64,000 bases of DNA, from positions 52,080,001 to 52,144,000 of the forward strand of contig NC_043005.1 in the NCBI RefSeq assembly GCF_006345805.1. Direction: 5' to 3'. Of the stretch, positions 5,405 through 63,310 are shown one piece after another. The notes under the pieces are model-generated. The model was not told the origin of the DNA and did no database searches. It was given only the letters and a program-made list of their open reading frames with translations. Position 1 is the stretch's first letter; the number at the start of each line of letters is the position of its first letter. A program made the position numbers and the translations under genes. The stretch is from Octopus sinensis (taxonomy: Eukaryota).

Positions 5405-5830
5405 GTGCGAGTGGCTCTGTGGTAAGTAGCTTGCTTACCAACCACATGGTTCCGGGTTCAGTCCAACTGGGTGGCACCCTGGGCAGATGTCTTCTCCTAT
5501 AGCCTCAGGCCGATTAAAGCCTTGTGAGTGGATTTGGTAGACAGAAACTGAAAGAAGCCCGTCGTATATATGTATATATATTCGTGTGCGTGTGTGTATG
5601 TTTGTGTGTCTGTGTGTGTCCCCCCAGCATCGCTTGACGACCGATGCTGGTGTGTTTACGTCCCCGTAACTTACCGGTTCGGCAAAAGAGACCGATAAAG
5701 TAAGTACTACGCTTACAAAGAATAAGTCCTGGGGTCGATTTACTCGACTAAAGGCGGTACTCTAGCCTCGGGCCGACCAAAGTCTTACCAGTGGAATTGG
5801 TAGACGGAAACTAAAAGAAGGCCGTCATAC
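5405..5830 (+). mobile_element. SINE family B with internal (TA/TG)n microsatellite
   Basis: gtggtaagtagcttgcttaccaaccacatggttccgggttcagtcc...gtggatttggtagac; many other copies in the window. Confidence 0.85.
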
Positions 5831-5862
<32 letters not shown>

Positions 5863-6449
5863 AAATGTATGTAATTATGTATGTATGAATGTATGTATGT
5901 ATATATGTATATGAGTGTATGTTTGTATAAGTGTGTGTACTTATCTGTATGTATGTGTCTTTGTGTCTGTTTGTTCACCCATCACCGCTTTATAACCGGT
6001 GTTAGTATGTCCCCGTAATCTAACAGTTTTGCAAAACGACCAATGATTTGCAAATAACGTGCACATACAAGTGCTACCAGTCGAGAGCTCCGCATACCGG
6101 AAGCCAGCAAGTGTATGGGGGTCATCAGAAGAGAATGCGCGTCATTTTGGGGCCTACCTCTCGACGGTGTCAATGCACATTGGCCCCCACCACACTGATA
6201 TGAGGCCCCGCTTGCTAGATCAGCTGGTTATCAAATAAAGTTCAATATTCTCCTAGCCATCGCTCATCGTCTCTTTTTAACCAAATAAGTTCTGGGGTCG
6301 ATTTATTCAACTAAAAGCCATTTGAGATAGTGTTCCAGCATGACCGCAGTCAAGTGATTGAAACAAGTAAAAGAATAAAGGAATAAATGAATTAATAAAA
6401 AATATCTTAGGAGTATTAATTATGAACCCGTTCTCCCTAAAACTGGACC

Positions 6450-9750: not shown

Positions 9751-10527
9751 TGAATTGTAAAGAAAATCTATCAGCGGCAATAATAAAAAAAAAAATTGTC
9801 CACAACAAATATGTAAGTTAAAAAATAGTACCAGGAAACAATTATTTTGTGAGAACAAAATATGTTATCTTTTTCTATGGTTATAAAAACAGAAATTAGT
9901 AGACATAAAGATGAAAGAGTGAGGTGGGTGGAATTAGTGTATGATTACGTATTACGGCTTGTTGAAAGGTGACCAGGTCGTTTGCACTTCGATCACCTCT
10001 AGCTTGAACCATTATAATTCCACGCTATACTTAAATACAGATACACACTCTCATTCACACTCTCACACACGCCATTGTGTTAACTTACATCATAAGTAGC
10101 TACAGGCATTACGTTCATGCTGATACAACTATTACTGTTGTCAGTTGGTTATTCCAAAAGTGGTGGAATGGTAGTGGTGGTCTTCCATGCATTCCTTTCG
10201 GTGTTATTGATGGTGGGTGGTATTGTTGGTGGCGGCCGAGGTCATATTGCTCTTGTGAATTATATTGCCGTTGCTGTTCAGCCTCAAGCCAATACTCATT
10301 GACCCTTAAAACAATAACTAATATTAAAATTTTTATGTCAATCGAGTCAGTCACTTGCTATTCTGGAGTTTCACCAGCGTGCATGAAGGTAATCTAGCAA
10401 GTCATAGTTCGTCTGATGACCATGTAAATGCATATCTAGAGACTCCAGAGTAGACTTCACCAAAATAAAAAAATATATATGCAAATACTACACATACACA
10501 CACACATGTATATACACATATTATGCA

Positions 10528-11419
<892 letters not shown>

Positions 11420-11460
11420 ATGCATGTATGTATGTGTATATGTATATATATATATATATA

Positions 11461-12561
11461 TAACGGGAAGCTTTATGAAAATAAACAAAAGACGAAGGCA
11501 GGTGGAAAACAAACGAACAATTGTATTAGTATGGCGCTCAGGAAATATAAATAAAACAAGTCTTTAACGTTTTGAACCTACGCTCTTCAACAGAAAGATA
11601 CACAGAGAGAGAAAAACACAGAAAGAAGGAGAGAAAAAAAATGCGTGCAGTAGCTAACGAATCAACATGGCGATCTGATTTCGGCCAGAGGTCAAAGATC
11701 AAACATGAGACGCGAGAGCGAAATAAGGGGAGATAATAGGGTTGATAAAAGGGTTGAGGGACCAGCTAAAAGTGCGTGGAGGGGTCTGGATGTGTGTATG
11801 TATAGGGTTGGTGTATGTATTAGTATGTATAAGGGTGTGTGTGTGTATGAGAGTATTAGTGCGTAAGATTGGTCTGGACGTGCGTATGTATGGGGTTGGT
11901 GTATGTATTAGTATGTATTAGTATGTATTAGTACGTATTGGTATGTATAGGTGTGTGTGTGTGTGTGAGAGAGTATAAGTGCGTATGCGGGGTCTGGACG
12001 TGTGTATGTATAGGGTTGGTGTAAGTATTAGTATGTACTAGTATGTATTAGTACGTATTAGTATGTATTAGTTGGTGTGTGTATTAGTATGGCACATCAT
12101 ATGTGATGTGATGTGTAAAGTCATGTGGTGTAGTGAGGAGAAGAGGGGAGGGGGAGAAGAGGGGGGGGAAGAGGGGGAGGGGGAGAAGAGGGGGGAGAGA
12201 GGGGAGGGGGAGAAGAGGGGGAGAGAAGGGGAGGGGGAGAGAGGGGGAGAGAAGGGGAGGGGAAGAAGAGGGGAGGAAGAAGGGGAGAGGAGAGGATGGG
12301 GGAGAAGGAAGGGGATGAGGGGGTGAAGGAGGAAAGAGGGGAGGGGAGAGGAGAAAGGGAGAGAGGGAGTGAGGGAGCAGAGGGAGGGGAGAGGGGGAGG
12401 GAGAAAGAGGGAAGAAGGGAAGGGGAGTAGGGGTGAAAGGATGAAGGACTGAAGAAGTAGGGGTCGGGGGGAAAAGGATAGGTGAGGAGGGGGGTGAGTT
12501 TAGAAGGAGGGGGGAGAGTTGAGACCAAATGGCGTATAAGAGCGAAGAGAGAAGATTAATT
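11461..12561 (-). repeat. 3' pseudo-LTR of the Penelope-like element
   Basis: Direct repeat of 16030-17090, overlapping the ORF end. Contains a GA-rich tract and three gtctgga(c/t)gtg...gtatgtattagt units. Confidence 0.95.
11561..11598 (-). ncRNA. Mutated hammerhead ribozyme in 3' pLTR
   Basis: Reads CTGTTGA A GAGC-GTAG-GTTC AAAAC GT T: G12 changed to A and one stem II C changed to T relative to the 5' copy. Confidence 0.65.
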
Positions 12562-15402
12562 CCTGTTCACGGCGCAAACGGGAATCCGGATGGCCTCTGT
12601 GTAGGACAAACCGAACACAGATAGGTGTTGCAAGGAGTGACCGGTGGAGCGGAAATGGCGTGAGACTGTGTGTCGTTCGCAAGGTGGATGTCACGAAGGT
12701 GTTCCGCGAACCGGTCAGCCAAGCGGCGTCCCGTTTGTCCGATGTACAAGGAATTGCAGAGAGAGCAAGAGATGCAATAGATAATATTGCTGGAGGTGCA
12801 GGTGAAGGAGTGGATGATGGGATAGGGTCGATGGTGGGTGCTAGTGAGGCGGGTGGTGTTGGAGAGGTAAGGGCAAGTGCGGCAACGTGGGCGGGAGCAG
12901 GGGAACGAGCCGGTTTGGGAGGTAGGGTCAGGGAAGGAGCTATGGACCAAAAGGTCTCGAAGGTTGTGGGCTCGTTTGAAAGAGGGGAGGGGTCGGTTAG
13001 GGAAGAGGTGTGAAGTGGACGGGTCGGACTGGAGATGACGGAAAGCTCGAAGAATGGTGCGTTGGAGACGTAGGGTCGTGGGGTGGTAAGTGAGGGGAAA
13101 AGGGAGGCGGGAGACTACAGGGCGGGTTCGGGGAGAGAGAGCAGATACACGGTCCACGGACCGTGCTCTGGCAAGGGCGGTGTGGATAGTGGTGAGGGGG
13201 TATCCACGTAGGTTGAAGTGGTGAGCCATACGTTGAGACTGAGTCTCAAAGTCATGGTCGTCACTACAGAGCCTACGTAGACGGAGGAATTGGGAATAGG
13301 GGATGGAAAGCTTGGTGTGTTCTGGGTGGGAGGAAGAGAAGTTGAGGTATGAGTGTGAGTCTGTGTGTTTGTAGTGAATGGAGGTGGTAAGAGTGGAGTG
13401 AAGAATGCTAACCGAAATGTCGAGGAAGGAGACAGAGGTGTTGGAGATAGTGGAAGTGAAGTGGAGGGCTGGATGGAAAGATTGGACGAAAGAGAGGAAG
13501 GAATCTAGATGTTCGCGGGAGAGTGAGGTGGCACCGATAATGTCGTCAATATAACGACCATATAGTTCAGGAGTGGGACCAGTGAAATTAGAGAATATTT
13601 GGGCCTCAACATAGCCAACGAACAGGTTCGCATAGTTGGGGCCCATTCGCGTTCCCATGGCCACTCCCGAGACCTGATGGTAGAACTCGCCCGCGAACGA
13701 GAAGCAGTTCAGAGTAAGGACAAGTTCGGCCAGACGAATGAGTGTGGAGGTGTCAGGTACAGGGTTAGAGCGGAGGTCAAGAAAGTGTCGAAGGGCCTGC
13801 AGTCCTTCGTGGTGAGGGATAACAGTATAGAGGCTTTGGATGTCCATAGTAAAAAGGATTTTGGAGGAGCCGGGAGGAAAGGAGAAAGAGTTGAAAAGCC
13901 GGAGAGCATGGTTGGTATCGTGGATGTGGGAGGGAAGAGATGCCACTAGGGGGGCAAGGACACGGTCGAGGTATTTAGAGATGAGCTCCGTGGGGCAGTT
14001 ACAGGCGGAGACGATGGGGCGGCCAGGGTTGTTGGGTTTGTGGATTTTGGGGAGGAAGTAAATGGTGGGGGTACGTGGGGTTCGCACAATTAGGTTGGAT
14101 GCGGTGCGGGGGAGACGGGAGGACGAGATGAGGTCTTGGACAGTAGAGGATACCGTCTGTTGGTAGCTACGTGTGGGGTTAGAGGGCAGAGGGGAATAGA
14201 AGGAGGTGTCATTGAGTTGGCGGAAAGCCTCGGCCCTATAGAGGTCCGCGCGCCACACCACTACAGCTCCACCCTTGTCAGCCGGTTTGATGATAATGTC
14301 AGCGCGCCGTTGGAGGGAACGAAGAGCCAAGAGCTCAGCCGGGGAGATGTTGAGGCGGCGTTGGCGCCTGGAGAAGTTGAACCGCTCCAATGCACGCTGA
14401 CAAGCGCCCGCGAAAAGATCCACTGCTAGGATCTGGCCAGGGGCAGGCGTCCACGGGGATGGTCGGCGGCCCAGGCCAGTGAAGCAGTCGTCCTCTTCGT
14501 TGGGTGTGGGTGGCGAGTCGTGGTATGCGCACCCAACCGGACACGGCGCACAAAGCTGTGGACATCAACTCGCGTCTGGAATTCCTTACAGGATGGAGTG
14601 AGGGGGATGAAACGCAGACCCCTACCAAGGACGGAGCGTTCAGCCGCAGAGAGGGGAAGATCGGGGGGAATGGTAACAACAGACGGAAGTGGAGAAGGGG
14701 TGGATGGAATAGAAGTAGGAGGGGTGGTAGGTCTCGTGGAGGTCTGAGGGGGAGGGATTGGAGAGGTGTGTGGGGGGGTGGTTGGGCGGGGCAGTAGGGT
14801 TAGGTGTAGGTGGATGGAGCCTAACGGGAGGGGAGAAGGGGTTGTAGGGAGGGGCAGTGGGGTTAGGTGTGGGTGGATGGAGCCTATCGGGAGGGGAGAA
14901 AGGTGGTGGAGGAGTTGGGGTAGTGGCGTCGGGTAGGGTGGAATGGAAGAGTGATTGGAGTTTACGAAGTTTGGTATCAGAAAGAAATTGATGGAAGAGT
15001 TGATTCAAATGGATAATGAAGCGTAGCGTGTTTGGAGCATAGAGAGGCGGCAGAGAGGAGAAGAGGTGAGAAAGCAGGAGGAAGAAGGCGGTTGATGGCA
15101 TGTAGTTTGGAGAGATTGGAGCGAATGGTGGCCCGCATAAGGCGGTAAGATGTGGTGCGGAGTATGGGTAAGATGGAAGAATCCGAGTGGAGAGCAGGGT
15201 GGAAGTGGAGGCGGAAACCTTTAGGGATGAGTCGGTGATGTAGGCAGCGGCTTAGGAAAGAGACATGGCTAGAGAAGCGGTTTTTTTAAAAAAGAAGTAG
15301 AGAGAGATTAACGGACGGCTGAAGGCAATATACAGGAAGCGAACGTAGATGATCCTTCAAACGGTGATGGAGAGTGAGGAGGTAGGACCTAGGATCCGGC
15401 AT
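12500..15402 (-). pseudogene. Full PLE ORF reconstructed across a stop and several frameshifts
   Basis: ATG at 15402 (MPDPRSY...), TAA at 15286-15288, then HVSFLSRCLHHRLIPKGF, DTKLRKL, a Pro-rich linker and LSAAERSVLGRGLRFIP in shifting frames. The C-terminus VSRHFRSTGH...RREQELIFSLRSYTPFGLN is split over two more frames and ends at 12500. Confidence 0.8.
12567..14423 (-). CDS. Penelope-like reverse transcriptase / GIY-YIG endonuclease (longest uninterrupted segment)
   Basis: RT motifs IIIKPADKGGAVVVW, YFLPKIHKPNNPGRPIVS, TMDIQSLYT, GVAMGTRMGPNYANLF and RYIDD; Cys linker PCSRPRCRTC; endonuclease NIIYCISCSLCNSLYIGQTGRRLADRFAEH. Confidence 0.95.
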   Translation of the reverse strand: MDLFAGACQRALERFNFSRRQRRLNISPAELLALRSLQRRADIIIKPADKGGAVVVWRADLYRAEAFRQLNDTSFYSPLPSNPTRSYQQTVSSTVQDLISSSRLPRTASNLIVRTPRTPTIYFLPKIHKPNNPGRPIVSACNCPTELISKYLDRVLAPLVASLPSHIHDTNHALRLFNSFSFPPGSSKILFTMDIQSLYTVIPHHEGLQALRHFLDLRSNPVPDTSTLIRLAELVLTLNCFSFAGEFYHQVSGVAMGTRMGPNYANLFVGYVEAQIFSNFTGPTPELYGRYIDDIIGATSLSREHLDSFLSFVQSFHPALHFTSTISNTSVSFLDISVSILHSTLTTSIHYKHTDSHSYLNFSSSHPEHTKLSIPYSQFLRLRRLCSDDHDFETQSQRMAHHFNLRGYPLTTIHTALARARSVDRVSALSPRTRPVVSRLPFPLTYHPTTLRLQRTILRAFRHLQSDPSTSHLFPNRPLPSFKRAHNLRDLLVHSSFPDPTSQTGSFPCSRPRCRTCPYLSNTTRLTSTHHRPYPIIHSFTCTSSNIIYCISCSLCNSLYIGQTGRRLADRFAEHLRDIHLANDTQSHAISAPPVTPCNTYLCSVCPTQRPSGFPFAP

Positions 15403-16029
15403 GATGGGATAGCGGAAAAAAAACGTTCGAAAAAACAAAAAAAAAAAAAACAAAAAACAAAAATTATCGTATGAAAAAAATAGAAAAAAAGGATAGCGAA
15501 AAAAGGGGAAAAAACAAACGTTCCAGAAAACAAAAAAATAATAATCGTATGAAAAAACTAGATAAGTAAGCGATAGGGGCAGAAAAGACGGGGCAAACGG
15601 AAAAGGGAAAGAAAGAAGGGAAGCAGAGAGAGGGGGAGGCAAAAAAAGGGGGGTGCAGGCAGAGGAAACGGAGTATGGACATCCAGAGAGGGAAGAAAGA
15701 CGGAAAGGAGAACAAAAATTCAGGAAAATGTGGGAAGCATGAAATGAATGTAAAAAAAGTGGTAATATAAGAGGAAATAAAAATTCAACAAACGGGACAG
15801 TTTATGCGAACAAGTTCAAGGTTGAAAGTTCAAGGTGAGAAATATGTAGACGTCGTGGTATATTTTTTAAGGATTTCACATCAATGCAAAGTCACTTTGA
15901 TCCGCGAAAGAGAGGTGCAGCCAATGGTAAGTATTCAAGAGGTAAAGAAAATCCAAGGTAGAGGTAAGTGTTGATAGTGGTATTGGTAGAATATAGGATG
16001 AAGGTGAGACCACGTGAGCGCATAATATA

Positions 16030-17090
16030 TAACGGGAAGCTTTATGAAAATAAACAAAAGACGAAGGCAGGTGGAAAACAAACGAACAATTGTATTAGTA
16101 TGGCGCTCAGGAAATATAAATAAAACAAGTCTTTAACGTTTCGAGCCTACGCTCTTCAACAGAAAGATACACAGAGAGAGAAAAACACAGAAAGAAGGAG
16201 AGAAAAAAAATGCGTGCAGTAGCTAACGAATCAACATAGCGATCTGATTTCGGCCAGAGGTCAAAGATCAAACATGAGACGCGAGAGCGAAATAAGGGGA
16301 GATAATAGGGTTGATAAAAGGGTTGAGGGACCAGCTAAAAGTGCGTGGGAGGGGTCTGGATGTGTGTATGTATAGGGTTGGTGTATGTATTAGTATGTAT
16401 AAGGGTGTGTGTGTGTATGAGAGAGTATTAGTGTGTAAGATTGGTCTGGACGTGCGTATGTATGGGGTTGGTGTATGTATTAGTATGTATTAGTATGTAT
16501 TAGTACGTATTGGTATGTATAGGTGTGTGTGTGTGTGTGTGAGAGAGAGTATAAGTGCGTATGCGGGGTCTGGACGTGTGTATGTATAGGGTTGGTGTAA
16601 GTATTAGTATGTACTAGTATGTATTAGTACGTATTAGTATGTATTAGTTGGTGTGTGTATTAGTATGGCACATCATATGTGATGTGATGTGTAAAGTCAT
16701 GTGGTGTAGTGAGGAGAGAAGAGGGGAGGGGGAGAAGAGGGGGAGAGAAGGGGAGGGGAAGAAGAGGGGGAGAGAAGGGGAGGGGAAGAAGAGGGGGAGG
16801 AGAAGGGGGAGAGGAGAGGATGGGGGAGAAGGAAGGGGATGAGGGGGATGAAGGAGGAAAGAGGGAGAGGGGGAGAGAGAAGGGGAGAGAGGGAGTGAGG
16901 GAGCAGAGGGAAGGGGAAGAGGGAGGGAGAAAGAGGGAAGAAGGGAAGGGGAGTAGGGGTGAAAGGATGAAGGACTGAAGAAGTAGGGGTCGGGGGGAGA
17001 AAGGATAGGTGAGGAGGGGGGTGAGGTTAGATGAGGAGGGGGGAGAGTTGAGACCAAATGGCGTATAAGAGCGAAGAGAGAAGATTAATT
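16030..17090 (-). repeat. 5' pseudo-LTR of the Penelope-like element
   Basis: Near-identical to 11461-12561; on + it starts taacgggaagctttatg and ends gagagaagattaatt. Confidence 0.95.
16130..16167 (-). ncRNA. Minimal type I hammerhead ribozyme in 5' pLTR (A6U core variant)
   Basis: Minus strand reads TCTTT CTGTTGA A GAGC-GTAG-GCTC GAAAC GT T AAAGA: 5-bp stem I, 4-bp stem II, palindromic ACGT stem III. Confidence 0.75.
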
Positions 17091-17129
17091 ATATATATAT
17101 GTATATATATATACATATATATATGAATG

Positions 17130-19140
17130 CCGTCCACTCGTGACCGAGGAAGGTCATTGCTGACCTTTAGGAACATTATGCGCTCTAGGATTAACTTATA
17201 TTTTGTATTTGCGGCTCCGTTGGTAGCTAATGAGCCCTGCACTTTACAAGTATACATGACTGCAAACACTGCAAATCAAGCTTTCCCCATTCACTACACT
17301 AGCAGTGCGCTTTCGAGAGTCACGCTTAATCCTTCATGCAGAATACATACTCTCTGAAAAGTGTCGACCCCTTTCTTAACCTGCTTCCTTCATCTGTGGC
17401 AATGACAAGCATTGCTCTTCCAGTAGGTTTCCTGCATATCACAGACATTTAATGAGGACTTGACACTGTCCTTAAATCGCAGCCTTGGTTTCTGTCAGGG
17501 TTTCTTTCCATTAAGAAGTTCCTAATATAGCATCTATTTAAAGAACCTGGTATTGTTCATTCTAGTAAGGTGTCCAGTCCAACGTAACCGATGCATGTGC
17601 ACCATCACCTCAATACTTAAGATATCAGCTTTCTTCAAGACCTGTGTATCTGGAGTTTTTAAGGTCCAGCCAACATTCAGAATGTGTCTCAGACATCTCT
17701 AATGCACGTATGCAAAGGGTCCATGTCTTACATGAGCAAAAGAGCGATGTCAGTTCATATACACGGTACGCAGCACTTTTTTTTTTACCTTGTGATGTCA
17801 TGCTGGGACTAGACACGAAACTGAAGAGACCGGAACGAATCAGATGCTCCCTGTATCCTGAAAGCTATTTTATCATCGAGGGAGCAACAACAGCTGGGTG
17901 TGCTTGTAGTGTTCCAACCTGCATTAGGAAATCCATGTGTGGAACCAACTATCTTGGTGCAAGGAACAATACTAAAAGTGGTAGACAAGTTTGTCTACCA
18001 CTTCCAGTATTGTTCCTTCAACCAAGCTAGTTGGTTCCATATATGGATTTCCTAGTACAGGCTGGAACATTACAACAGTCTTGTCCAGGCTAATGCTGAG
18101 TCCAAATGCATTGCAAGAAGCAGAAATACGATTCATAAGTATTTGCAAGTCATTCACTGCATGAGTGACTAAGTAACAGTCATAAGGGAGGTCACAAATA
18201 AGAGACTGAAAATCTTTTGAGCTGGAAGCAAATCGGCGCGGATTAAAAAGGAGGCCAGAAGTTCGATACCTGACACATATTCCCAGAGAGCGAACCTTAG
18301 CAAAAGCATGAGTAAAAGCATCAGCAAAGCACAAAGAAAAGAGAGTTGGGACAAGTATGTAACCCTGCTTGGCACCATTCTCTACAGCAATGTATCCTGC
18401 TATGTCACCACCAGCATTGATTCAAACCTCCATCCCATCAATCAACTGATTTAATTATAGATACAAAGTGATCCGGACATCCAAGTATGCCAAATAATTT
18501 CCATAGCAAGGCCCTATTCACAGTATCAAAGGCCTTGGTTAAATCAATGAATACCAGGACAAAATCCATATACTGCTCATATTGCTTCTCCTGCCTCTGC
18601 CTTGCTGTGAACATCATATCCATTGTCCCTTTGCCAGATCGTAAAACACATTGAAATTCAGATAGGACATCATTTACAAGACACCCATTCAACCAGGTAA
18701 GAAGAATATTTGCCAGAAACTTGTCAGCAGCTCATAATAGAGCAATGCCTCTGTAGCTACCACATATTTACTTTTTTATTGCCTACAGGGGACTAGGCAT
18801 AGAAGGGACAAACAAGGACAGACAAAGGGATTAATCCGATTACAACGATCCCAGTGCGTAACTGGTACTCATTTAATAGACCTCGAAAGGATGAAAGGCA
18901 AAGTCGACTGCGGCAGAATTTGAACTCAGAACGTAGCAGATGAAATACCGATAAGCACTTCTCTCGGCATGCTCACGATTTCGCCATCTCATTTTTCTAT
19001 CTCCTTTCCCTTTATAAAGAAGAATAATTGCATCCTTCCAGTCCTTAGGCATTGCACCACCCCTCCAGACTACACTAATAAGTTCATGAAGGGACTGTAT
19101 GATGTTATCACCACCAGCTCGCAAGACCTCACCACAAATT
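17130..19140 (-). pseudogene. Degraded RTE-clade LINE reverse transcriptase, interrupted by a SINE at ~18770-18990
   Basis: [60 protein letters not shown] and FGLSISLDKTVVM, with stops and frameshifts. Confidence 0.9.
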
Positions 19141-19355: not shown

Positions 19356-20559
19356 GCCCTTTAGCCAACACTAATCAAGTTAATATGAATTTGGATTTGG
19401 AAGTAGGTAAAATTCCCTGTCCCATTATAGTAAAGTTAGCTTCTCGAATCATGCTGATTCACAAAGGCCGGTTTCTCGGTTTCCATTGCGTATGTATTTC
19501 CCACCTGGATGGGACGCCGGTCCATCACAGGGTTACTCATTTTTGCCAGCCGTGTGGACTGGAGCCACATGAAATGAAGTATTTTTCTTAAGAACAGAAG
19601 TCGTCGCTCGGCCCACGAATCGAAGCCGCCATCTTACGATAATATGTCCGACACACTAACCACTAAGTCATGCGCTTCCACCAGTCCGTCTCATCATTGG
19701 CAACATGGCAAATCCCCTGCTGTAGGTACCTATAGAGAATTTTGTGGACAATGTTTTGTCATAGGAGGAAGGACAGTCCAAAGACTGTAAAGATTGAAAA
19801 GGTGGGTTATAAATTTCCATATTTAATAGGATTACATCAGTTTTGAACTTTTTAAGCATGTTTAACAACATATCGTGGGAAGAAATTATATAATGGATTA
19901 AATTCTACGGAGGAGGAGGAAGTTTTATTAATGATGGGGGATGCGGGACCTGGTATTTGTGTTCTTTAAAATCATTGATCTAACTAGTAGTTGGAAGAAA
20001 GATTTATTTAACGGTGATCCTTATCCGCCTTATCACAGAATAACTCATAGGCGCCGGTGTGGCTGTATGGTAAGGAGTTTGTTTCCCAACCACATGGTTT
20101 CGGGTTTAGTCTTACAGAGTGGCACCTTGGGTAAGTGTCTTGTACTATAGCCTTGTGTGTGGATTTGGCAGTCAGAAAATGAAAGAAGCCTGTCATTTAC
20201 ATAAATATGTATGTGTGTGTGTATGTGTGTGGTGTATGTGTGTGTGTGCGCATGCGTATGCGTGTGTGCGTGCATATGTGTTAATGTGTGTGAGTGTTTG
20301 TCAGTTTCGCTCTCGCCACTGTTTGACTGTTTGCCAACAGGTTTTGATGTGTTTACGTCCACATGACTTAGCGGTTCGACAAGAGACCGATCGAATAAGT
20401 ACCAGGCTTAAAATAATTTCAGTATTAGGGTCGACACATTGAACTAAAAACGCTTGAGGTGCTGCACTAGGATGGCTGCAGTCTGATGACTGAAATGAAT
20501 AAAAGGTATAAGATAGAAGATCAGAAAAATTCCATCGAACCTACACCCGTTTAAATCAA

Positions 20560-21616: not shown

Positions 21617-21835
21617 ACACAAAGGGGTGCTGAAAAGTTCCTGTCTTTAAAGGTACCGCAAAACACCTGGTTGGAGGCCCATCCTTCAATTTTTTTACAG
21701 GGCTTAGAAAAACCAAACGATCGCTGCAATAAGTGTGTGAACCTGAGAGGGGAATATAATGAATAAAATCATAATTAACTGTTCAACCTGTATTATCTTT
21801 TATCCAACGCCAGGAACGTTTCAGCACTCTCTCGT
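21617..21835 (+). mobile_element. Mariner-derived MITE
   Basis: TIRs ggggtgctgaaaagttcctg and caggaacgtttcagcactct; interior encodes a mariner C-terminus FLQGLEKPNDRCNKCVNLRGEYNE. A related inverted copy lies at ~26005-26195. Confidence 0.75.
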
Positions 21836-22239
21836 TTATGGATATATAATATATTATTTAATATATTCATACATGTATCTTCTTAAGTAAAGTAGTCTTC
21901 GTGCTCTCTGCATATTATACTTAATAAATTAAATGCTGCAAGATATTTTAAGGTTGGATTCGTTACATTTTTACACAATTGTTAATCATTTAGATAATAC
22001 AGTATAAGTTTAATTTTAATGAATCTAAATATATTGCATAATTTCATTGAGCTTGTAAGTCTCCACTTAACTGATGTATCTTCATGCAGTAGACGTCACC
22101 GGGTATTTTATCTTAGTAGTTCTTATGATTTTAAAAACTTTTTAATGTTTTCCAAGGGAATGTATACATACTCATAGATATAGATTAAATATAGATACAC
22201 GCACACTAATATATACATACATATTGCGCACGCATGCTT

Positions 22240-23620
22240 TCCTTATCGTACGATGACTTCTCTGTCAACCTGCCTATCTATATATCTACCGATATTTCTT
22301 TCTTTGTACTTATCTTTCCGTTCCTTTCTCTGACTAATGTTTTTCACTTAACACCTATATTTCTATCTTTTTCTTTATTTGCATAACTTTCTTCCATTGT
22401 TTGAATTCTTTAATCTTTATATATCGTTCTAACCCTCCATCTTTTTATTTATCCCTTCATCTCCCTTCCTATATATTCCTATCCTGTTTGGTCTTTGCAG
22501 CAAGCCTTTATCTTTGTATTTTTCTCAACCTGCATGTACTCTTTTATTTCTCTCCACTCCTTACGGGCCCCACAAGGATTTCTTTCTGTTTTTCAAGCTA
22601 CCCTTTTCTAATGGTCAGTTACCACTTACTAGATCCTGGTTTGTCAAAAACTTCCTTTTCTCAATACCGAAAGGCACATTCACTTTCATCCTTATCATGC
22701 GACTATCAATCTATCTATCTATCTATCCATCTATCTATCCCTATTTCTTTAAAGTTACCTTTCCATTGCATTTTCCTTTCAAAAATTTTCATTTAATATT
22801 TATCTATCATTTTTCTCTACTTACGTAACTTTCTTTTATTGTTTCCATCCATGTATCTTGCTATCATCGTATCCTTCTACTCATCCTTTCATCTTATGTA
22901 CCCAACTATTTATCTCTATCTTTCTACCCAACTCTTCGTTTCCCCCTTTCTTACCCTGTGTATAGTCACTGCATCAGCTCTTTCTCTCATCCACCTTCAG
23001 ATTTTCTGTCTTCTTCTCAACCCGCCTGTACCCTTTCCAAACTTTCCCCTCCCAAAAGAATCCTCAAGGCTTGTTTCTTTCTTATTCTTTTTTAGAATTG
23101 ACCGCTCTGGTCAGTCGGTTCTCTTATAGCTCAACATTTCTTATACATTATACCTTAAGGCCGAAAGGCACACAATCTTTCCTCCTTACCATGCGACAAC
23201 TCTTCTCTCTATCGCTTTCTTTCTTTATACTTACCATTCTGTTACTTCCTTGTCAAAAGTTTTCCCTAAATACCAGTTTCTAACTTTTTCTCCATTTACA
23301 TACCGCTCATTCTTGTCTGCATCCTTTCATCTTTCCATCGTTTTATCCTTCAATTTTCATATCTACATATCTATACATCTCACTTTCTACTCATTCGTAT
23401 CATAGTTTAGCCCCTCCTTATGTTGCTCAAGCCCTCCTTCCTCACACTGAATATCTGCCTTTCTCTCAACTCCTTTGTATCCTTTCCATATCTCCCTCCA
23501 CCACAATGCCGCCTTCTTTCTCTTGCGTCGGTTACCATTTCTTTTATTATTATCATTACTATTTTGAATTGACCTTCTCACTGGTCATTTGGTTCATCTT
23601 TTCATCTCCTACATGTTTCA
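22240..23620 (+). repeat. Degenerate pyrimidine-rich (CT-biased) low-complexity region
   Basis: Strong C/T skew on + with no recognisable protein. Confidence 0.6.
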
Positions 23621-24914: not shown

Positions 24915-25357
24915 TATATATATATCATTAAGGTGGCTATTAACAATTTAAAACAGAAAGGTACAAGCACAGTCGTCACTAAAGTGACTGAGGCTGCTAG
25001 TAAGTACCAGCATTGCTAGAAATAAAAGTCAAAACAACCCTTAGCCACGCGAGAGGATGCGAGATGGAGTTATATCATCGATGATTTCAGATTTGGTTAA
25101 TCTTCATCAGTAACCCATTGTTCTGTCGTCGAAGGTGAAAAACTTAACTGACTTCGTCAGTGTTTTGTAGAGAACACCGTAGTAAACATTGACTGATTCC
25201 GAAAATGGTAAAGTGAAAATTATAAATAATTATGGTAGCTATTCGCAATTTCCAGTTGAAAGGCACAAATATAGTCAGCACCAGAATTGCTAGGCATAAG
25301 AGTCGAAGAAACTCTTGGTCATTTGGTCATGTGAGAGCACTTTTCTAACGACTGACA

Positions 25358-25678: not shown

Positions 25679-25907
25679 GTGTGTATGTATATATATATAT
25701 AATTAGAAACACAAAGGAATAAGAAATGATAACATGAAGTTCATTTGTTTACTACTGTTTCTACTATAAGATGCAATGCACGCATAGTTGAGTGCTTGTG
25801 TATCACCCGATGGCTTCATCAGAGCTTCAAACAAGAAGTGCAATTTTATTCGGGGAAAACATTTACATTTATATAATATAATATAATATAAGATTATATA
25901 TATATTA

Positions 25908-26008
<101 letters not shown>

Positions 26009-27595
26009 GAGAGGTTGGGTAGAAGAAAATAGATGGCGATCGGTTGTTTATGATTTTATTCAACATATTCCCTTGTCAGATTGACCCTATTGCTGCAACG
26101 GTCCTTCAGTTTGTCTAATCTCTGTAAAAAGACTCAGAATGTTGGGCCTACAACTGGGCCTTTCGCGAAACCTTAAAACCAGGAACATTTCAGCATTAAC
26201 TCATGTACATATATGTATGTGTGTGTATATATGTGTGTGTGTGTGTGCGTGTGTGTGTGTGTGTGCGTGTGTGTGTGTGTATAAAATATTCTCGTTAGTA
26301 TTTATAAGAAAACTAATAGCATTCATTTTGGTATTGCCTGCTGTCCCTGGGTATTTAGTGGGATTCTGTTAAGAGCATGGTATAACGCGTTCTCAAACTA
26401 TTACATACAGAATTATTATGAAAAAGGTTAATAAATTTTCGGAAAGAATTCAGATATTGATTTTGGAAAAACTGGGATATGTATCTTAAAACTTTTAACT
26501 GTTGCTCGGAGGGACAACGAATTTTTTAAAAGTATATATAGGAGTAATTTCTAGTATAGAGCTTAAATTGAATCGTTCGAACGATTAGTCTTCATTGTAG
26601 GGGCAGTTGTGACTCTGTGATAAGAAGCCTGCTTCCCAAACACATGGTTCCGGGTCTAGTCCCACTGCGCGCCACCTCGGGCAACTGCTTCCTATTGTAG
26701 CCTTGCACCGACCAAAGTTTTGTGGGTGTATTGGTAGACGGAAACTGAAAGAAGCCTGTCGTATATATGTTATTTTATTAATCTATTTACAGTTCTAGGG
26801 AGAGTATTCTTTAGGTTATTAATTGCTTTTTCTTTCATACATTCGCAAAGTATATTATTCCATTATGTTTAATAAATTTCTATTTACTACTTGTTTGTTT
26901 TAATGATTTATAGCTTTTAAGTTCAACAGTTCTTTGAGTGGAAATGTTCGTTGTAATATATGTTACTGTTTTCTATACTCTATTTTTTAAATTTCAATGC
27001 TTCATAACCGAAGGAATGTTATGATTTATGTTTGCAACTTAGGGCTTATATTCGTCTTCTTTCCTCTTTGTAATAACACTCAGAATAAATAGCGATAGAC
27101 ATAATGAACGTGTTGTGCATATGTTTTACCCCAGATTCTTGTCTATTAATTCTTAGGCAGCATTTATGTTTTTGACACCTTTGGCAGCTCCGGATGGGAC
27201 GGTATTGCTTAAGTGTCGAAACCATAATGATACTCGTTAGGCAGTTGATGATGGGATATATAGGTCCCATGTGCTTACTTATTTGTATGTAATTTCGCCT
27301 GAAAAATATTCGTATATTGATTTATCATTGTTTCCAAGGTGTCCTTCATTGAGATTCTAGTACTGTTAAGTGCCCAACTTGTCAAGGGAATGAATAGTTT
27401 TCAGTTGTTTTGTTGAACACAAACACATACAAACGCGACGCAGGTATATCTATGAAAATATAGATAGATAGTGCATGAAATATATGACTACATACAAATA
27501 TATAATATACATACACATTATATATATATACATCATGATTGCTCGCTCGTCACTAAACCTTTCTTATTTTCTCTCACTGTTTATTTCTTTGTTCC

Positions 27596-27629
27596 TTTCT
27601 GTTGAAGAGCGTAGGCTCGAAACGTAAGA
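27596..27629 (+). ncRNA. Minimal hammerhead ribozyme in a solo pLTR-like cassette (~27535-27710)
   Basis: TTT CTGTTGA A GAGC-GTAG-GCTC GAAAC GT A AGA, identical in core and stem II to the pLTR ribozyme; flanks are homologous to the pLTR. Confidence 0.7.
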
Positions 27630-28705
27630 CTTTCTCACTTCTCGAGCGTTAAACTAATACATTTGTTTGTTATTTACACACCCGTCTTCGTCTTTTTTTT
27701 TGTAAATTCCAAGTATTTTTATGTGTGTGTTTGTGTGTATGCGTGTATGTCTTTTACTCTTTTAATGGTTTTAGTCATTAATGGTTTTAGTCATTTGACT
27801 GTGGCCATGCTGGAGCACTGCCTTTAGTCGAGCAAATCGACTCCAGGACTTATTCTTTGTAAGCCTAGTACTTATTCTATCGGTCTCTTTTACTGAACCG
27901 CTAAGTTACGGGGACGTAAACATACCAGCATCGGTTGTGAAGCGATGTTGGGGTGACAAACACAGACACGCAAACATATACACACACATACATATATACA
28001 TATATATACATATATACGACGGGCTTCTTTCTGTTTCGGTCTACCAAATCCACCCATAAGGTTTTAGTCGGCTCGAAGCTATAGTAGAAGACACTTGCCC
28101 AAGGTGCCACGCAGAGGGACTGATCCCTCATTAGACTGCGGCCATGCTGGGACAGCGCCTTCATAAAACTTTTGTCAGATGAATCGACTCCAGTCCTTAA
28201 TCTTTAAAAGCCTGGTACCTATTTCATCGGTCTATTTTACCGAACCTCTAGTTTACGTATGCGTATACACCCCAATAACAATTGTCAGGCGGTGACGGGT
28301 GACGAATGCAGGCACAAATATACATAAATATACACATACTTTCAGCGGTGGTGCCCCAGCATGGCCGCGGCCTTCGGGCTAAAACATTTTTAAGGATTTA
28401 AAGATTTATACTTATGTACATATATACGGCGGGTTTCTTTTAGTTTCCGTCTACCAATTTCACTCACGAAGCTTTAGTCAGCCTTGTGCTATAGTAAAAG
28501 ACACTTACCCAAGGACACACACACACACGCACAATAGAACGGGCTTCTTTCAGTTTCTACCTATCAAATCCACTCGCAAGTCTTTGGTCAGTTCGTAGCT
28601 GTAGCAGTACATACTTACCCAAGGTGCTACGCAGTGGGAGTGAATCCGGAACCATGTGTTTGGGAAGCAAACTTCATAAGATGTTGCCATGTCTGCGCCG
28701 ATATA

Positions 28706-33859: not shown

Positions 33860-34276
33860 ATATGAGTGGCTGTGTGGTAAGTAGCTTGCTAACCAAGCAT
33901 ATGGTTCCGGGTTCAGTCCCACTGCGTGGCATCTTGGGCAAGTGTCTTCTGCTATAGCCCCGGGCCGACCAATGCCTTGTGAGTGGATTTGGTAGACGGA
34001 AACTGAAAGAAGCCTGTCGTATATATGTATACATATATATATGTATGTGTGTGTATTTGTGTGTCTGTGTTTGTCCCCCTAGCATTGCTTGACAATCGAT
34101 GCTTGTGTGTTTACGTCCCCGACACTTAGCGGTTCGGCAAAAGAGACCGCTAGAATAAGTACTGGGCTTACAAAGAATAAGTCCCGTGGTCGATTTGCTC
34201 GACTAAAGGCGGTGCTCCAGCATGGCCGCAGTCAAATGACTGAAACAAGTAAACAAGTATATATATATATATATAT

Positions 34277-40919: not shown

Positions 40920-41293
40920 TTGTGTATCTGTGTTTGTCCTCCCACCATCATTTCACAACCGATGTTGGTGTGTTAACGTCCCCGTAACTTAGCGGTTCGG
41001 CAAAACAGCCCCATAGAATAACTACTAGAATCAAAGAAGAGAATAATAAGACCTAGGGTCGATTTGTTCGACTAAAGGTGGTGCTCCAGCATGGCCGCAG
41101 TCAAATGACTGAAACAAATAAAAGAAAAGAATAAGAGAATATATAGCTTGTTTACCAGCCACATGGTTCCGGGTTCAGTCCCACTGCGTGGCACCTTGGG
41201 CAAGTGTCTTCTACTATAGCCTCGAGCCGACCAAAACCTTGTGATTGGATTTGGTAGACGGAAAATGAAAGAAGCCCGTCGTATATATGTATA

Positions 41294-41333
<40 letters not shown>

Positions 41334-41556
41334 TGTGTGTGTGTTTGTGTGAGTGTGTTTGTCCCCCTAGCATTGCTTGACAACCGATGCTGGTGTGTTT
41401 ATGTCCCCGTTACTTAGCGGTTCGGCAAAAGAGACCGATAGAATAAGTACTGGGCTTACAAAAGAATAAGTCCCGGTGTCGAGTTGCTCGATTAAAGGCG
41501 GTGCTCCAGCATGGCCGCAGTCAAATGACTGAAACAAGTAAAAGAGTAAAAGAGTA

Positions 41557-41625: not shown

Positions 41626-42309
41626 TGTTTGTGTATGTATGCGGTGTGCGCGTATGACTGCGTGGTTGGAGGTTTCCGTCTCAGCTTCATGGTTCCGGAT
41701 TTAGTCTTAAAGCTTGCCACCTTGGGCAAGCGCATTCTGCTATAGGTCTGGGCCGACGAAAACCTGTACGTGTGTGTGTTTGTGCGTGCGTGCATGTGTG
41801 TGTGTGTGTGTGTTTGTGTTTATCCTCCACCACCGATATGTTTACGACCCCGTAAGCCAGAGTTTCAGCAAAATAAACCGATAAGAAATGTACCATACTT
41901 AACAAAAACAGAAAAATATCTACTGGGGTCAATTTGTTCTACTAAAGTCTACAACGCGGTGCACCAGCAGACTCAAACAAGTAAAAGATAAAATATATAT
42001 ATATATGTATATATCTGCCTCTCTGTCTCCCGCTGTCTCCATTATCTTTCACTTATTCCATTATGCTGGGGCCATGCTGGGGCACCACCCTGAAGGGTTT
42101 AGGTGAACCAATCGATTCCAGGTACTGATTGTTTTGAAGTCCGATACTTATTCTACCGTACTCTTTCGCCAAAACGCTAAATTCCCACGTATGTAAACAA
42201 ACCGGCACCGGTTATCAAGCGATGGTGGTGGGGACATGCACAAACACTGACACACACACTCGAGCGCACATACAACTCAAGCGCACACACACACGTATGT
42301 GTGTGTATA

Positions 42310-42520
42310 TATCTCTTTTACTTGTTTCAGTCATTTGACTGCGGCCATGCTGGAGCACCGCCTTTAGTCGAGCAAATCGACCCCGGGACTTATTCTTTGT
42401 AAGCTCAGTACTTATTCTATCGGTCTCTTGTGCCGAACCGCTAAATGACGGTGACGTAAACACACCAGCATCGGTTGTCAAGCAATGCTAAGGGGACAAA
42501 CACAGACACACAAACACACT

Positions 42521-42569
<49 letters not shown>

Positions 42570-42735
42570 TACATATACGACAGGCTTCTTTCAGTTTCCG
42601 TCTACCAAATCCACTCACAAGGCATGGTCGGCCCGGGGCTATAGCAGAAGACACTTGCCCAAGATGCCACGCAGTTGGACTGAACCCGGAACCATGTGGT
42701 TGGAAAGCAAGCTACTTACCACACAGCCACTCCGT
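42310..42735 (-). mobile_element. SINE family B, well-preserved copy
   Basis: Reverse complement of the family B sequence. Other copies lie near 20050-20510(+), 27750-28125(-), 35040-35480(-), 37045-37415(+), 46280-46725(-) and 53735-54125(-). Confidence 0.85.
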
Positions 42736-44674: not shown

Positions 44675-45204
44675 TAGAACATAAACAGTAAGGTGAAGTT
44701 CTGAGGTCCGAAGAGAACCCTGAACGAAACGCATGGGGCATGGGAACGAAGAACTTGAGACCAACTTTCGGTTAGTTTCTCCAAACGTAAGCTTTTGTGC
44801 TGAAATACATTTATCTTTTACCATTTACTTGTTTCAGTTATTGGACTGTGGCCATGCTGGGGCACCGCCTTGAAGGATTTAGTCGGACAAATCGACTCCG
44901 CTTCTTATTTATGTTTTGGTTTTAAACCTAGCACTTATTCTATCGATCTCTTTTGCCGAATTGCTATGTTGCGGGTATATAAACAAACCAATACCAGCTG
45001 TCAAGGAAGGTGAGGGGACAAGCAAAAATACAGAGATATACACACGCACACATACACAGACATATAGGAAGTAAATAGATATCTTTAATTTTCAAAATTT
45101 CTGATCTAAGCGTCTTGATATGTTTTCAGCGGAGTAGAATTTACAATGTAATTATTCTTTTTCATTCCAGGTACCATTATATTAAACATTTGCAAAGAGT
45201 AACC

Positions 45205-45586
45205 CTGCCACGCACAAAAAAAATCAGCAGAACTGTCAGATTTTCAAAGAGGTCGAATTCTTGGGCAATCTGAGGCTGGTCTTAGCCAGCGAAAAATTGC
45301 CGAAAATCTACAAATTCCTCTTGCTACTGTTACTAGAATTATAGTGCAGTTCAAAAGCCAAGGAAAAGAATCAACAGATTCTCGTCCCGGCCGACCTGGG
45401 CCCTCGGAAAGGAAGTTTCGCTGTTTGAAGAGAATTGTAGAAAACGAACCCCGTTCGAAGGTTTCTGATAGTGCAAAAGAGCTAGAAGTTAGTCCAAGAT
45501 CGTGTGTTACATATCTGCATAAGCTTGGGTATTATGGACGAGCAGCTGGAAGAAAACCTCTCCCTCAACCAATTAATATCGAATAA
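45205..45586 (+). pseudogene. Tc1-family transposase N-terminal fragment
   Basis: [38 protein letters not shown]...RPGRP...[10 protein letters not shown] (paired-like HTH and GRPR-like motif), truncated before the DDE domain. Confidence 0.85.
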
Positions 45587-50309: not shown

Positions 50310-50800
50310 CTGGCAGAATTTTCTCTCGTCTGAGAAAAACCGAAGTATGTTCGGTTGGAGCGGATACTCGAGTTAGTTCAAAAGCTTCGTAGCGCGTCTT
50401 TCCCCTTGTCCTTGATAGCTTGGTATAAAAATTGGCTCCTTCTCTTCTTGTATGAGGAATATCGAATGTCTTCAAACACTACCTGCATAATAAGAAACTC
50501 AGACACTCTCATGGCCCTGGCGATGGACCTGATTGTCTTGGAGGGATTGTTGTCAATCATGGCCTGGTTCCCACCAACAAATTCACGAATTCTTTTCTTA
50601 TAAGAACCATTAGAGTGAGTTTTCCGAATTGCGTTACATTCGTAATCACTATTAGACTCATCCAAAGGTTTCCGAATCCCTTGGACAGTCCTCAGATTGA
50701 CACCCATAAACACTGAGATATTCGTATTGGAGATCCCGGCGCGAATGTCAAGCACTACAGCGTGTCGTTTCCAAATTTTTGGCAGAGTTACTTACATCAT
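50310..50800 (-). pseudogene. Tc1/mariner superfamily (DD37D/maT-like) transposase N-terminal fragment
   Basis: IDNNPSKTIRSIARAMRVSEFLIMQVVFEDIRYSSYKKRRSQFL (second HTH); no catalytic domain. Confidence 0.7.
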
Positions 50801-52739: not shown

Positions 52740-53047
52740 GGGTTTTTCATAGTTGTGGTAAATTTACTATGTATTCAGATTTGAGTTTAAACAGCTCTTT
52801 AACCTGTGCAATACAGGTTTCAGGCAGACCAAAGCCGTGTGAGTGGATACCTTAGGCAGAAACTAAAAGAAAATCATCATATATATATATACAAACACAA
52901 ACTTACACACATATGTATATGCCCAATATATATATAAGTATATATACATACATACATACAGATATATATGTTTTTTCAAAATGTAACCAGATGTGAATCG
53001 TTTGCGATTTTTTTCCTCCGTCTTACTTTCCTATTGGATTTTTCTCT

Positions 53048-53082
53048 GTTTCTGAAGAAGATCTTTGCTCGAAACGTTAAAC
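53048..53082 (+). ncRNA. Minimal hammerhead ribozyme in a ~210-bp cassette (~52975-53185)
   Basis: GTTT CTGAAGA A GATC-TTT-GCTC GAAAC GT T AAAC: canonical CUGANGA/GAAA core, 4-bp stem I, one mismatch in stem II. Confidence 0.7.
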
Positions 53083-53182
53083 CATTTTTCCTTCCTTTCC
53101 TGAGTCTCTGTTAATACTTTACATGCTTCACGTTGTTTTTTTCTTTTCTTTTCTGTTTTTTCTTCGTTTTACCAGGATTTAC

Positions 53183-53214
<32 letters not shown>

Positions 53215-56098: not shown

Positions 56099-56282
56099 AT
56101 ATAGATATATATATATATATATATATATATATCTATATATATATTATATAATATATATATATATATATATATAATATATAGTTAATCCAAACATGAAAAC
56201 ACAAGACAAAACCAACAACGCGAGGACGTGGAACAAATATAGTATTATTGGACGCTCACGAAGGAAGGGAAGAAAGGAGGGA

Positions 56283-56314
56283 TTTACGTTTCGAGCGGAG
56301 CTCTTCGTCAGAAA
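56283..56314 (-). ncRNA. Minimal hammerhead ribozyme in a ~220-bp cassette (~56175-56395)
   Basis: Minus strand TTT CTGACGA A GAGC-TCC-GCTC GAAAC GT A AA: canonical core and perfect stem II, but a short stem I. Confidence 0.7.
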
Positions 56315-56699
56315 CATAGGAAAAGGAAAGAACCAGAGAAGGGAAGACGGAGGAAAAAAAATCGGCAACAGTATACACGCAGTCACATTTTGAATGTATA
56401 TATATATATATTATATATATACATGTGTGTGTGTGTGTTTTTGTGTGTGTATTTATGTATATATATCTATGTGACCGTGTCTTTGTATCTGTTCTTGGCC
56501 CCCACCAATGCCCCGCAACAAGTGTTGGTGTGTTTACGTGTCCGTAATATGGAGTTTCGGCAATAGGGGCCGATAGAATAGATACTAGGCTTTACAAAAA
56601 TGTACTAGGGTCGATTCATTCGACTACAGCAGTTTAAATCGGTGCCCCAGCATGGGCACAGTCAAATGACTGAAACAAATAAAAACAACAGATAAGGTA

Positions 56700-59459: not shown

Positions 59460-59957
59460 ATTTCTTTATTGCCCACAAGCGGCTACACACAGAATCGACC
59501 TTGGTGGAATTTGAACTCATAACGTAGCGGCAGACGAAATAACTATTTCTTTACTATCCACATGGGGCTAAACACAGAGAGGACAAGCAAGGACAGATAA
59601 ACGGATTAAGTTGATTATATCGACCCCAGTGTGTAACTGGTACCCATTTAATCGACCCCGAAAGGATGAAAGGCAAAGTCGACCTCGGCGGAATTTGAAC
59701 TCAGAACATAGCGGCAGACGAAATACCTATTTCTTTACTACCCACAAGGGGCTAAACACAGAGGGGACAATCAAGGACAGAGAAACGGATTAAGTCGATT
59801 ATATCGACCCCAGTGCGTAACTGGTGCTTAATTTATCGACCCCGAAAGGATGAAAGGCAAAGTCGACCTCGGCGGAATTTGAACTCAGACCGTAACGGCA
59901 GACGAAATACGGCTACACATTTCTCCCGGCGTGCTAACGTTTCTGCCACCTCGCCGA
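59460..59957 (-). mobile_element. Multimeric SINE family C
   Basis: Two full ~180-bp units plus a partial third, each with the gcctttcatcctttcggggtcga core or part of it. Confidence 0.8.
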
Positions 59958-60889
59958 CTTCTATCAGTTTCTGCCTGCCAAATGCATTCACAAAGTGTTA
60001 TCCATCCGGGTCAATAGTAGAAAAAGTTCCCTAAAGTTCCATGCAGTGGACCTGACTGAACCTTATAACCGTGTGTTCGTGACACAAACTTATTATACAG
60101 CCACGAATGTGTGAGTTTAACCATCTAAATAGCATACTTAAGATATACAACCAGTCGATAGTCCAGGTACAATATTTGTGCTGCGATAACATCTCTGATA
60201 GACTTGCTCTGAACAAAATATCAGAGAATAACCAAGATTCATCCCAGCAACAGCCAGCCAAGGCGAGAGTTATCTGTCAGCATTTTAAAGCCTTTTGAAT
60301 GGCACGTGTTTGCAGCCCACCATGTGTATATATACACATATATGTTGTCTCTCATGCAGGAAAAAGTGAGTGAATTATTCACTATTTCTATCTCGCGACA
60401 AATACTACGGTAATTAGCATATCCATATAGATGGCTATGATAATTAGATAACGTCTTACTTGCGTATATGGAATTGTTAATCAGTTAGGCGGCTATTTGC
60501 AATATCCGTACGTGTTTTATTCACCTTTGCCTATAGCAGAAGCGACGAATTCTCGTTCAGGGATATTGCTGGGTGCGACTAAGTGCCATTGTAAAGGGCC
60601 GAAAAGCACCAAAATACCACTGGCAAATTTGGACGGTGTGTCTCCTACTTGGACGAATTTTCGTCGTTCTCTCTCTTCTCCTTCTCTCTACTCCCACTCT
60701 CTCCACCCTCACTCTCTCTAACCTCTTCTTTCTACCCCCCTCTCCCTGATGCATTTTAAACTTGGTTTCGTTAAAAACGTGTTGTGTTTTTAACTTCGCT
60801 AGTCAAAAGCAGATGCTAGTTCAGGACGCTACAATTTTGTAGTAAATTCTGTCTCAGTTACTTATTCCGAGCCATTTACATATGATTTG

Positions 60890-62897: not shown

Positions 62898-63310
62898 TAA
62901 GGCGGCGAGCTGGCAGAAACGTTTGCACGCCGGGCGAAATGCGTAGCCGTATTTCGTCTGCCGTTACGTTCTGAGTTCAAATTCCACCGAGGTCGACTTT
63001 GCCATTCATCCTATCGGGATCGATAAATTAAGTACCAGTTATGCACTGGGGTCGATATATTCGACTTAATCCGTTTGTCTGTCCTTGTTTGTCCTCTCTG
63101 TGTTTAGCTCCTTGTGGGTAGTAAAGAAATAGGTATTTCACCAGCCGTTACGTTCTGAGATCTAAATCCGTCGAGGTCGACTTTGCCTTTCATCCTTTAG
63201 GGCTCGATAAATTAAGTACCAGTTGCGTACTGGGGTCAATGTAATCGACTTAATCCCTTTTTCTGTTTGTCCCCTCTATGTTTAGCCCCTTGTAGGCAAT
63301 AAAGAAATAG
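62898..63310 (+). mobile_element. Dimeric SINE family C, young copy
   Basis: aaggcggcgagctggcagaaacg head followed by two core+tail units. Confidence 0.85.

Follow-up and report, generated by a model that had tools for sequence, protein, structure and literature searches.

A full-length, likely recent Neptune-type Penelope-like retrotransposon in a TA microsatellite of Octopus sinensis

Neptune-type organization and the closest described systems

The Neptune and Nematis clades of Penelope-like elements (PLEs) are defined by a CX2-5CxxC linker that precedes a GIY-YIG endonuclease in C-terminal position, and Fig. S2 of PMC8557442 gives the spacing between linker and GIY motif as long in Neptune and short in Nematis; Neptune is paraphyletic in that study. 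Targeting of (TA)n by Neptune and hammerheads in pseudo-LTRs (pLTRs) have already been described (PMC8557442, PMC4209133), and minimal hammerheads are reported to have low activity and to be likely dimer-dependent (PMC4209133; PMC6765202 agrees). Killifish are known to carry active Neptune elements (PMC12602865), and in O. vulgaris 336 insertions have been assigned to 31 Penelope-like families with recent activity (PMC13282606). The main text of PMC13282606 does not mention Neptune, hammerheads or ribozymes, and its supplements may hold the family of the element described here. A search of the literature on cephalopod Neptune, octopus Penelope retrotransposons and octopus hammerheads, with Repbase and Dfam outside its scope, found no description of this element.

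We analyzed a 64,000-nt window of the Octopus sinensis genome (NC_043005.1) and identified a 5.6-kb element on the minus strand (17090 to 11456), inserted in a TA microsatellite. It is very probably a full-length, likely recent Neptune-type PLE; as assembled, its one RT-linker-GIY-YIG gene is interrupted by a stop and five frameshifts (Table 1). Two direct pLTRs (1106 and 1066 bp) enclose this gene between 11456 and 17090. As in other EN+ PLEs, a single ORF encodes a PLE-type RT together with an endonuclease of the GIY-YIG type, here disrupted, and the pLTRs arise from a partial tandem. The upstream repeat begins at the equivalent of 12561, within the last 20 codons of the ORF and 59 nt before the position of its stop, as expected of a 5′-truncated second unit.

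Table 1. Features of the element, its flanks, the solo hammerhead cassettes and the interspersed repeats (window positions).
Feature	Position	Strand	Remarks
Left flank, element 3′ end	11315..11462	.	(TCTA)n, then TA-rich microsatellite; TA-rich run 11387-11462
3′ pLTR	11456..12561	-	Ends in TATATAT (11456-11462)
3′ pLTR hammerhead	11561..11598	-	G12 to A (11573); stem II C to U (11576)
GIY-YIG endonuclease, CCHH motif	12500..12800	-	Frameshifts near 12670 and 12600; stop 12500-12502
Cys linker C-X4-C-X2-C	12873..12899	-	24 residues before the Cys preceding the GIY motif
RT domain	12900..14690	-	DKG motif, motifs A, B′, C (YIDD 13553-13542), thumb; frameshift near 14525 upstream of core
Pro/Thr-rich insertion	14690..14950	-	~70 residues extra vs relatives; 63-bp (21-codon) tandem duplication 14775-14909
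ORF N-terminal part	14950..15402	-	Met 15402; stop 15286-15288 in T6A7 run; frameshift near 15030-15090
Unique 5′ leader	15403..16024	-	T/C-rich; 43-codon upstream ORF at 16023; ~85-bp degenerate duplication near 15410-15570
5′ pLTR	16025..17090	-	5′-truncated second copy of element 3′ end; purine/pyrimidine tract, ~120-bp tandem repeat, hammerhead
5′ pLTR hammerhead, minimal type I	16130..16167	-	All core positions except A6 to U; predicted cut after 16135
Right flank, element 5′ end	17090..17126	.	TA microsatellite
Solo cassette, pLTR-related	27530..27703	+	Hammerhead at 27599; 75% over 124 nt locally, 65% global vs pLTR 3′ end
Solo cassette, second family, second copy	52969..53185	+	Core of the hammerhead at 53052; one mismatch in stem II
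Solo cassette, second family	56175..56395	-	Hammerhead at 56311; TA runs on both sides
Interspersed repeat copies	5409-5939, 27778-28127, 33864-34265, 41144-41546, 42306-42732 and others; 59495-59960, 62899-63310		Two families

The element shares with the Neptune clade (Neptune1_Nv, DrerioNep1, Neptune-1_Ac and Penelope1_XT in Figs S1-S2 of PMC8557442) an endonuclease that is C-terminal to the RT and has a CCHH motif, a GLN-type endonuclease end, partial-tandem pLTRs, TA targets and a hammerhead in the pLTR. The CX2-5CxxC linker lies upstream of GIY-YIG at the long spacing of that clade (24 residues, compared by eye with Fig. S2). The element differs from these references in its ~70-residue Pro-rich insertion, its very C-rich coding strand (40% C) and its 1.1-kb pLTR. 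A by-eye count over 69 RT columns (PMC8557442, Fig. S1) finds the element identical to DreriNep1 at 34, to XtropNep4 at 31, to PoseidonF at 21 and to a C. remanei Nematis at 21; the Coprina-type, EN-less Selagine1 also reaches 31/69, equal to one of the Neptunes.

Other PLE groups fit less well. Nematis shares the Cys linker and the C-terminal endonuclease, but its linker stands at short spacing from the pre-GIY Cys, and we rejected this membership, finding neither the short spacing nor a Nematis-type RT. Penelope/Poseidon elements share the C-terminal GIY-YIG with CCHH, pLTRs and minimal hammerheads; that clade is without the Cys linker, and the presence of one here speaks against membership. 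Octopus Naiad elements (Naiad_Obim and Naiad_Ovul in File S1 of PMC8557442) have (TA)n targets, linker and CCHH motifs and likely the host genus in common with our element, but their endonuclease is N-terminal and they are without canonical hammerheads. Domain content and order exclude a Naiad/Chlamys identity, the endonuclease here not being N-terminal, and equally an LTR retrotransposon.

Matches to the element protein at E<=1e-20 were found for 1,887 of 8,000 scored candidates. The best full-length relatives are 53-58% identical, with none above 58% among the full-length matches and the host's own ORF absent from the match lists. The linker pattern occurs in 135 of 194 long YIG-bearing relatives at a spacing of 22-34 (24 in the element), the pattern missing the other 59. 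The closest relative, P0138 (81% over 217 residues), is itself frameshifted. In our trees, from which labelled references for Neptune, Poseidon, Nematis and Coprina were absent, the element groups with P0138 at full support and both lie inside a 98-99% clade of relatives. The next named rows of the tree reported here, a quick tree in which the element protein and P0138 were flagged for unusual composition, are Oculina and Acropora (support 94, under the threshold of 95); beyond these come shark and ray, and the gastropods fall outside. This position gives only a lead toward horizontal transfer, in a tree affected by composition bias.

A preliminary description of this DNA had called the element Neptune-type, with TA repeats at both junctions. 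The assignment to this clade, which we infer from domain order, linker motif and spacing and the by-eye comparison with published references rather than from a labelled tree, agrees with it, as do the TA-rich runs at 11387-11462 and 17090-17124. A target-site duplication is not delimitable inside the flanking TA. Perfect (TA)5+ runs make up 3.9% of the window outside the element (2,264/58,364 bases), and the one element copy in the window lies in a TA run (1/1), a single copy that cannot show an insertion bias. A tblastn search of the window with five relatives yielded no second PLE ORF and therefore no local outgroup or sister copy.

The disrupted gene and its lesions

Frameshift-aware alignment to four full-length relatives places the gene between Met 15402 and the stop at 12500 (12500-12502). 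The alignments reveal a premature stop (15286-15288; region passed by two of the four) and five frameshifts (~15030-15090, ~14680-14910, ~14525, ~12670 and ~12600), of which the second is a single net shift of ambiguous position in the Pro/Thr-rich insertion. The last two frameshifts appear in three of the four alignments, the local alignment to P0025 ending before both. At the N-terminus, residues 1-109 of P0007 match 15402-15094 (tblastn, E 6e-11). A stop-free 665-codon frame (12567-14564) covers the RT, the linker and the endonuclease's first half. It matches RVT_1 (Pfam, E 7e-8). Of 118 conserved columns in the RT core, the element deviates at 2, where 108 relatives have a median of 3. The GIY-YIG match (E 0.003, score 18.3) lies under the curated Pfam cut-off of 22.6. 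Both Cys between GIY and YIG and the first His are in frame; the frame is lost for the second zinc-finger His, which follows the 12670 frameshift, and for the conserved Glu and Asn.

With one stop and five frameshifts, the copy as assembled would give no full-length protein. Even from a downstream translation start it would lack a working endonuclease, since frameshifts lie ahead of its second His and of its Glu and Asn. The preliminary description had reported a complete RT-Cys linker-GIY-YIG ORF disrupted by one stop in a T/A run and a few frameshifts. The lesions fall where it had placed them and every part of the gene is present, but the ORF is in pieces and these three endonuclease residues are out of frame.

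An intron in the leader is an optional PLE trait, seen in Penelope. A sequence scan of the sense strand from 15390 to 17095 found no consensus splice donor and one possible acceptor (15558). On the antisense strand of the leader (15780-16020, +) we observed several near-consensus splice-donor motifs.

The pLTRs (11456-12561 vs 16025-17090) are 92% identical over 1,122 columns with gaps included (blastn). By region, the non-purine part of the alignment has 671 matches against 4 mismatches and 3 gap openings; the purine tract has 304 matches, 5 mismatches and 15 gap openings, and the ORF end 61 matches, no mismatches and 1 gap opening. These counts place the differences mainly in simple-sequence tracts, in accordance with the earlier account of two ~1.1-kb pLTRs that differ mostly in simple repeats. 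Outside the purine tract, divergence amounts to 4 substitutions in 736 sites (0.54%, 95% interval 0.15-1.4%), all four of them transitions. The two copies of the ORF end (12485-12525 and 17012-17054) show a small indel and one substitution at the stop codon, and a stop at the relatives' position is present only in the 3′ pLTR copy.

It is plausible that some of the ORF lesions are assembly errors. By eye, three of the frameshifts look like the loss of one base at a short run, the pattern of long-read consensus errors; the premature stop sits at a T6/A7 boundary, and the 63-bp duplication keeps the frame. The gene is indel-heavy, with five frameshifts against the ~8 substitutions predicted for the ORF from the pLTR substitution load, and the pLTRs differ by 19 gap openings and 9 substitutions. 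Taken to its limit, this evidence would describe a copy intact in the animal, a live master element in which all six ORF lesions are consensus errors. We consider that unlikely. The frameshift excess (P 0.001-0.02 at the point estimate of the substitution load), which depends on assumed indel-to-substitution ratios of 0.1-0.2, is not significant at the upper bound (P 0.05-0.38), and 1,850 bp of the ORF (14520 to 12670) are without a lesion. Moreover, the four pLTR substitutions outside the purine tract, all transitions, look real; two of them fall in the 3′ hammerhead, and at both sites the 27599 cassette matches the 5′ copy, so that real mutation likely occurred. The lesions are most likely a mixture in which some but not all are sequence errors, and the copy is probably dead.

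Hammerhead motifs and solo cassettes

Among the 150 of 184 Rfam matches listed, all below the gathering score and mostly microRNA models on microsatellites, there was no hammerhead, and we therefore used a custom scan. A strict hammerhead pattern has three matches in the window (16162, 27599 and 56311), compared with a mean of 0.005 in 200 shuffles (1/200 with any match). As in other EN+ PLEs, the pLTR thus contains a predicted hammerhead motif, here an A6U variant. The 5′ pLTR motif has a 5-bp stem I, an extra A after A9, a 4-bp stem II and a palindromic 15.1-16.1. In the 3′ pLTR motif, agreement of the 27599 cassette with the 5′ copy marks both changes as derived. G12 is the general base of the hammerhead, and its loss there, a change absent from the preliminary description, is likely a real, inactivating mutation.

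The U at position 6 is common to the pLTR hammerhead and the 27599 cassette. In the lowest-energy structure predicted for the A6U motif, the core is paired within a helix other than the hammerhead's. Pairing holds in 88% of cells across five hammerhead sequences, and one pair in stem I differs on both sides; covariation in these five sequences is not significant (112/500 shuffles reach the score). Metazoan PLE minimal hammerheads (PMC4209133) and non-LTR retrozymes (bioRxiv 10.64898/2026.07.22.740005) have in common with these motifs the extra base between 9 and 10.1, the G10.1-C11.1 pair, the palindromic 15.2-16.2, a stem I of 4-5 bp and a prevalence of solo copies. Stem II is 4 bp here and 7-8 bp in the Schistosoma motifs; further differences from these described systems are the U in place of A6 in this Neptune-type family and cassettes that are single rather than in tandem arrays. 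Further CTGA-N-GA ... GAAA motifs with a long or imperfect stem II lie at 25060-25170 (-), 25740-25825 (-) and 20483 (+) and are possibly decayed hammerheads of other PLE families. Loose matches at 20483, 25110 and elsewhere failed the strict pattern and were dropped.

Three solo hammerhead cassettes of 170-220 nt adjoin TA-rich runs in the window. They are 65%, 47% and 46% identical to the pLTR end, and the second-family copies are 68% identical to each other with a common 5′ start. Outside the hammerhead, only the downstream part of the 27599 cassette exceeds all shuffles (0/500), the other five comparisons, including its upstream part, being reached by 4 to 219 of 500. On sequence similarity, the 27530-27703 cassette is a diverged relative of the pLTR end, and none of the cassettes is a recent product of this element. 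The Neptune-type family is not their direct parent, as they are only 45-65% identical to its pLTR end.

Mobilization of the cassettes in trans by the Neptune-type family is plausible. The same minimal hammerhead architecture, T-rich surroundings and TA-rich flanks recur, the cassette 3′ end lies roughly 75-105 nt past the cut site as in the pLTR, the two members of the second family begin at a common 5′ position, as expected of a non-autonomous element, and PLE-derived retrozymes have been proposed (bioRxiv 10.64898/2026.07.22.740005). That this family is their current source of RT and endonuclease is nevertheless doubtful, given the low identities to the pLTR end and the single comparison that exceeds all shuffles. 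The second-family cassettes look old, since their two copies differ by 32%, and any of the 31 recently active Penelope-like families of O. vulgaris (PMC13282606) could serve. 5′-truncated ends of sister PLE families would explain the cassettes equally well; truncated sister-family ends and non-autonomous derivatives both fit.

From known PLE biology, the upstream pLTR would start a transcript that is translated into the RT-endonuclease, and the endonuclease, likely guided by the Cys linker, would nick the (TA)n tract. Reverse transcription could then be primed where a TATAT-like 3′ end of the RNA anneals to the nicked strand, a second, 5′-truncated pass over the RNA would generate the partial tandem seen as two pLTRs, and the minimal hammerheads would cut slowly and only as dimers. 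The TATATAT stretch that ends the 3′ pLTR (11456-11462) is common to the element and the flanking TA run. It also occurs at the internal pLTR junction, where, instead of being a motif for priming, it may have been left over from a previous target. A more far-reaching reading would make the element part of an undescribed active cephalopod Neptune lineage, nearer to coral- than to gastropod-type elements and possibly horizontally acquired, which primes in (TA)n through its target-matching 3′ end, conserves an A6U hammerhead in an off-fold and spreads 200-nt cassettes in trans through a microsatellite-rich genome; we regard it as quite improbable.

Age and surroundings of the insertion

With four substitutions in 736 bp between its pLTRs outside the purine tract, the copy is likely young. 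The preliminary description had also called it young and had proposed pLTR-pLTR divergence as a check; the resulting value of about 0.5% and the undecayed RT core support that view. It is highly improbable that the element is an old fossil with pLTRs homogenized by gene conversion or collapsed in the assembly, for although the gene has six disruptions and conversion can reset pLTR identity, the RT core is as conserved as in open-frame relatives (2/118 departures), 665 codons run without a stop, the adjacent LINE-type RT is visibly more decayed, and the pLTRs differ at many places and so are not a collapsed duplicate. An argument from CpG decay was dropped, the CpG observed/expected ratio being 0.88-0.89 throughout.

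A young full-length copy with clean ends can serve as a consensus seed and as a candidate for in vitro PLE assays. We know of no Neptune element reconstituted in vitro so far. An in vitro PLE system and microsatellite targeting are among the open tasks named in PMC8557442. At a rate of 0.09 per 25 million years (PMC13282606), and on the assumption that both pLTRs were copied from the same template and identical at insertion, we infer an insertion age of ~0.75 million years (0.2-1.9). Activity of the family at some time in the past 1-2 million years is likely. The element also gives a clade name to a share of the 'Penelope' load recently active in the octopus. It is a fresh example of a well-described element type, all of its main features being known for Neptune, and for that reason alters no view.

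The insertion sits in the TA run beside the 3′ end of decayed LINE-type RT fragments (17127-18990, -; RVT_1 E 7e-7 and 3e-4), which contain an 85-bp inverted repeat (17904-18075) and presumably, from their motifs, are RTE-like. Three of 26 candidates matched the fragment, two of them named Octopus vulgaris (66-72%). On the other side, the segment that forms the left flank of the element (10527-11314) begins with a GC-rich hairpin and ends in (TCTA)n; we take it to resemble Helentron-associated short elements. In Pfam searches covering 99 of the 175 filtered ORFs that lie outside the element, the only matches were remnants of LINE-type RT and of Tc1-type helix-turn-helix domains, with no host gene among them; the Tc1/mariner-type remnants lie at 45203-45583 (+) and 50381-50791 (-). 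A strongly purine-skewed 1.8-kb stretch (21800-23600, -) has an internal ~190-bp degenerate repeat and no Pfam match in the ORFs tested. Two abundant families of short interspersed repeats, with identities of up to 91% between copies and a 184-bp tandem unit in one family, are in our assumption likely octopus SINEs.
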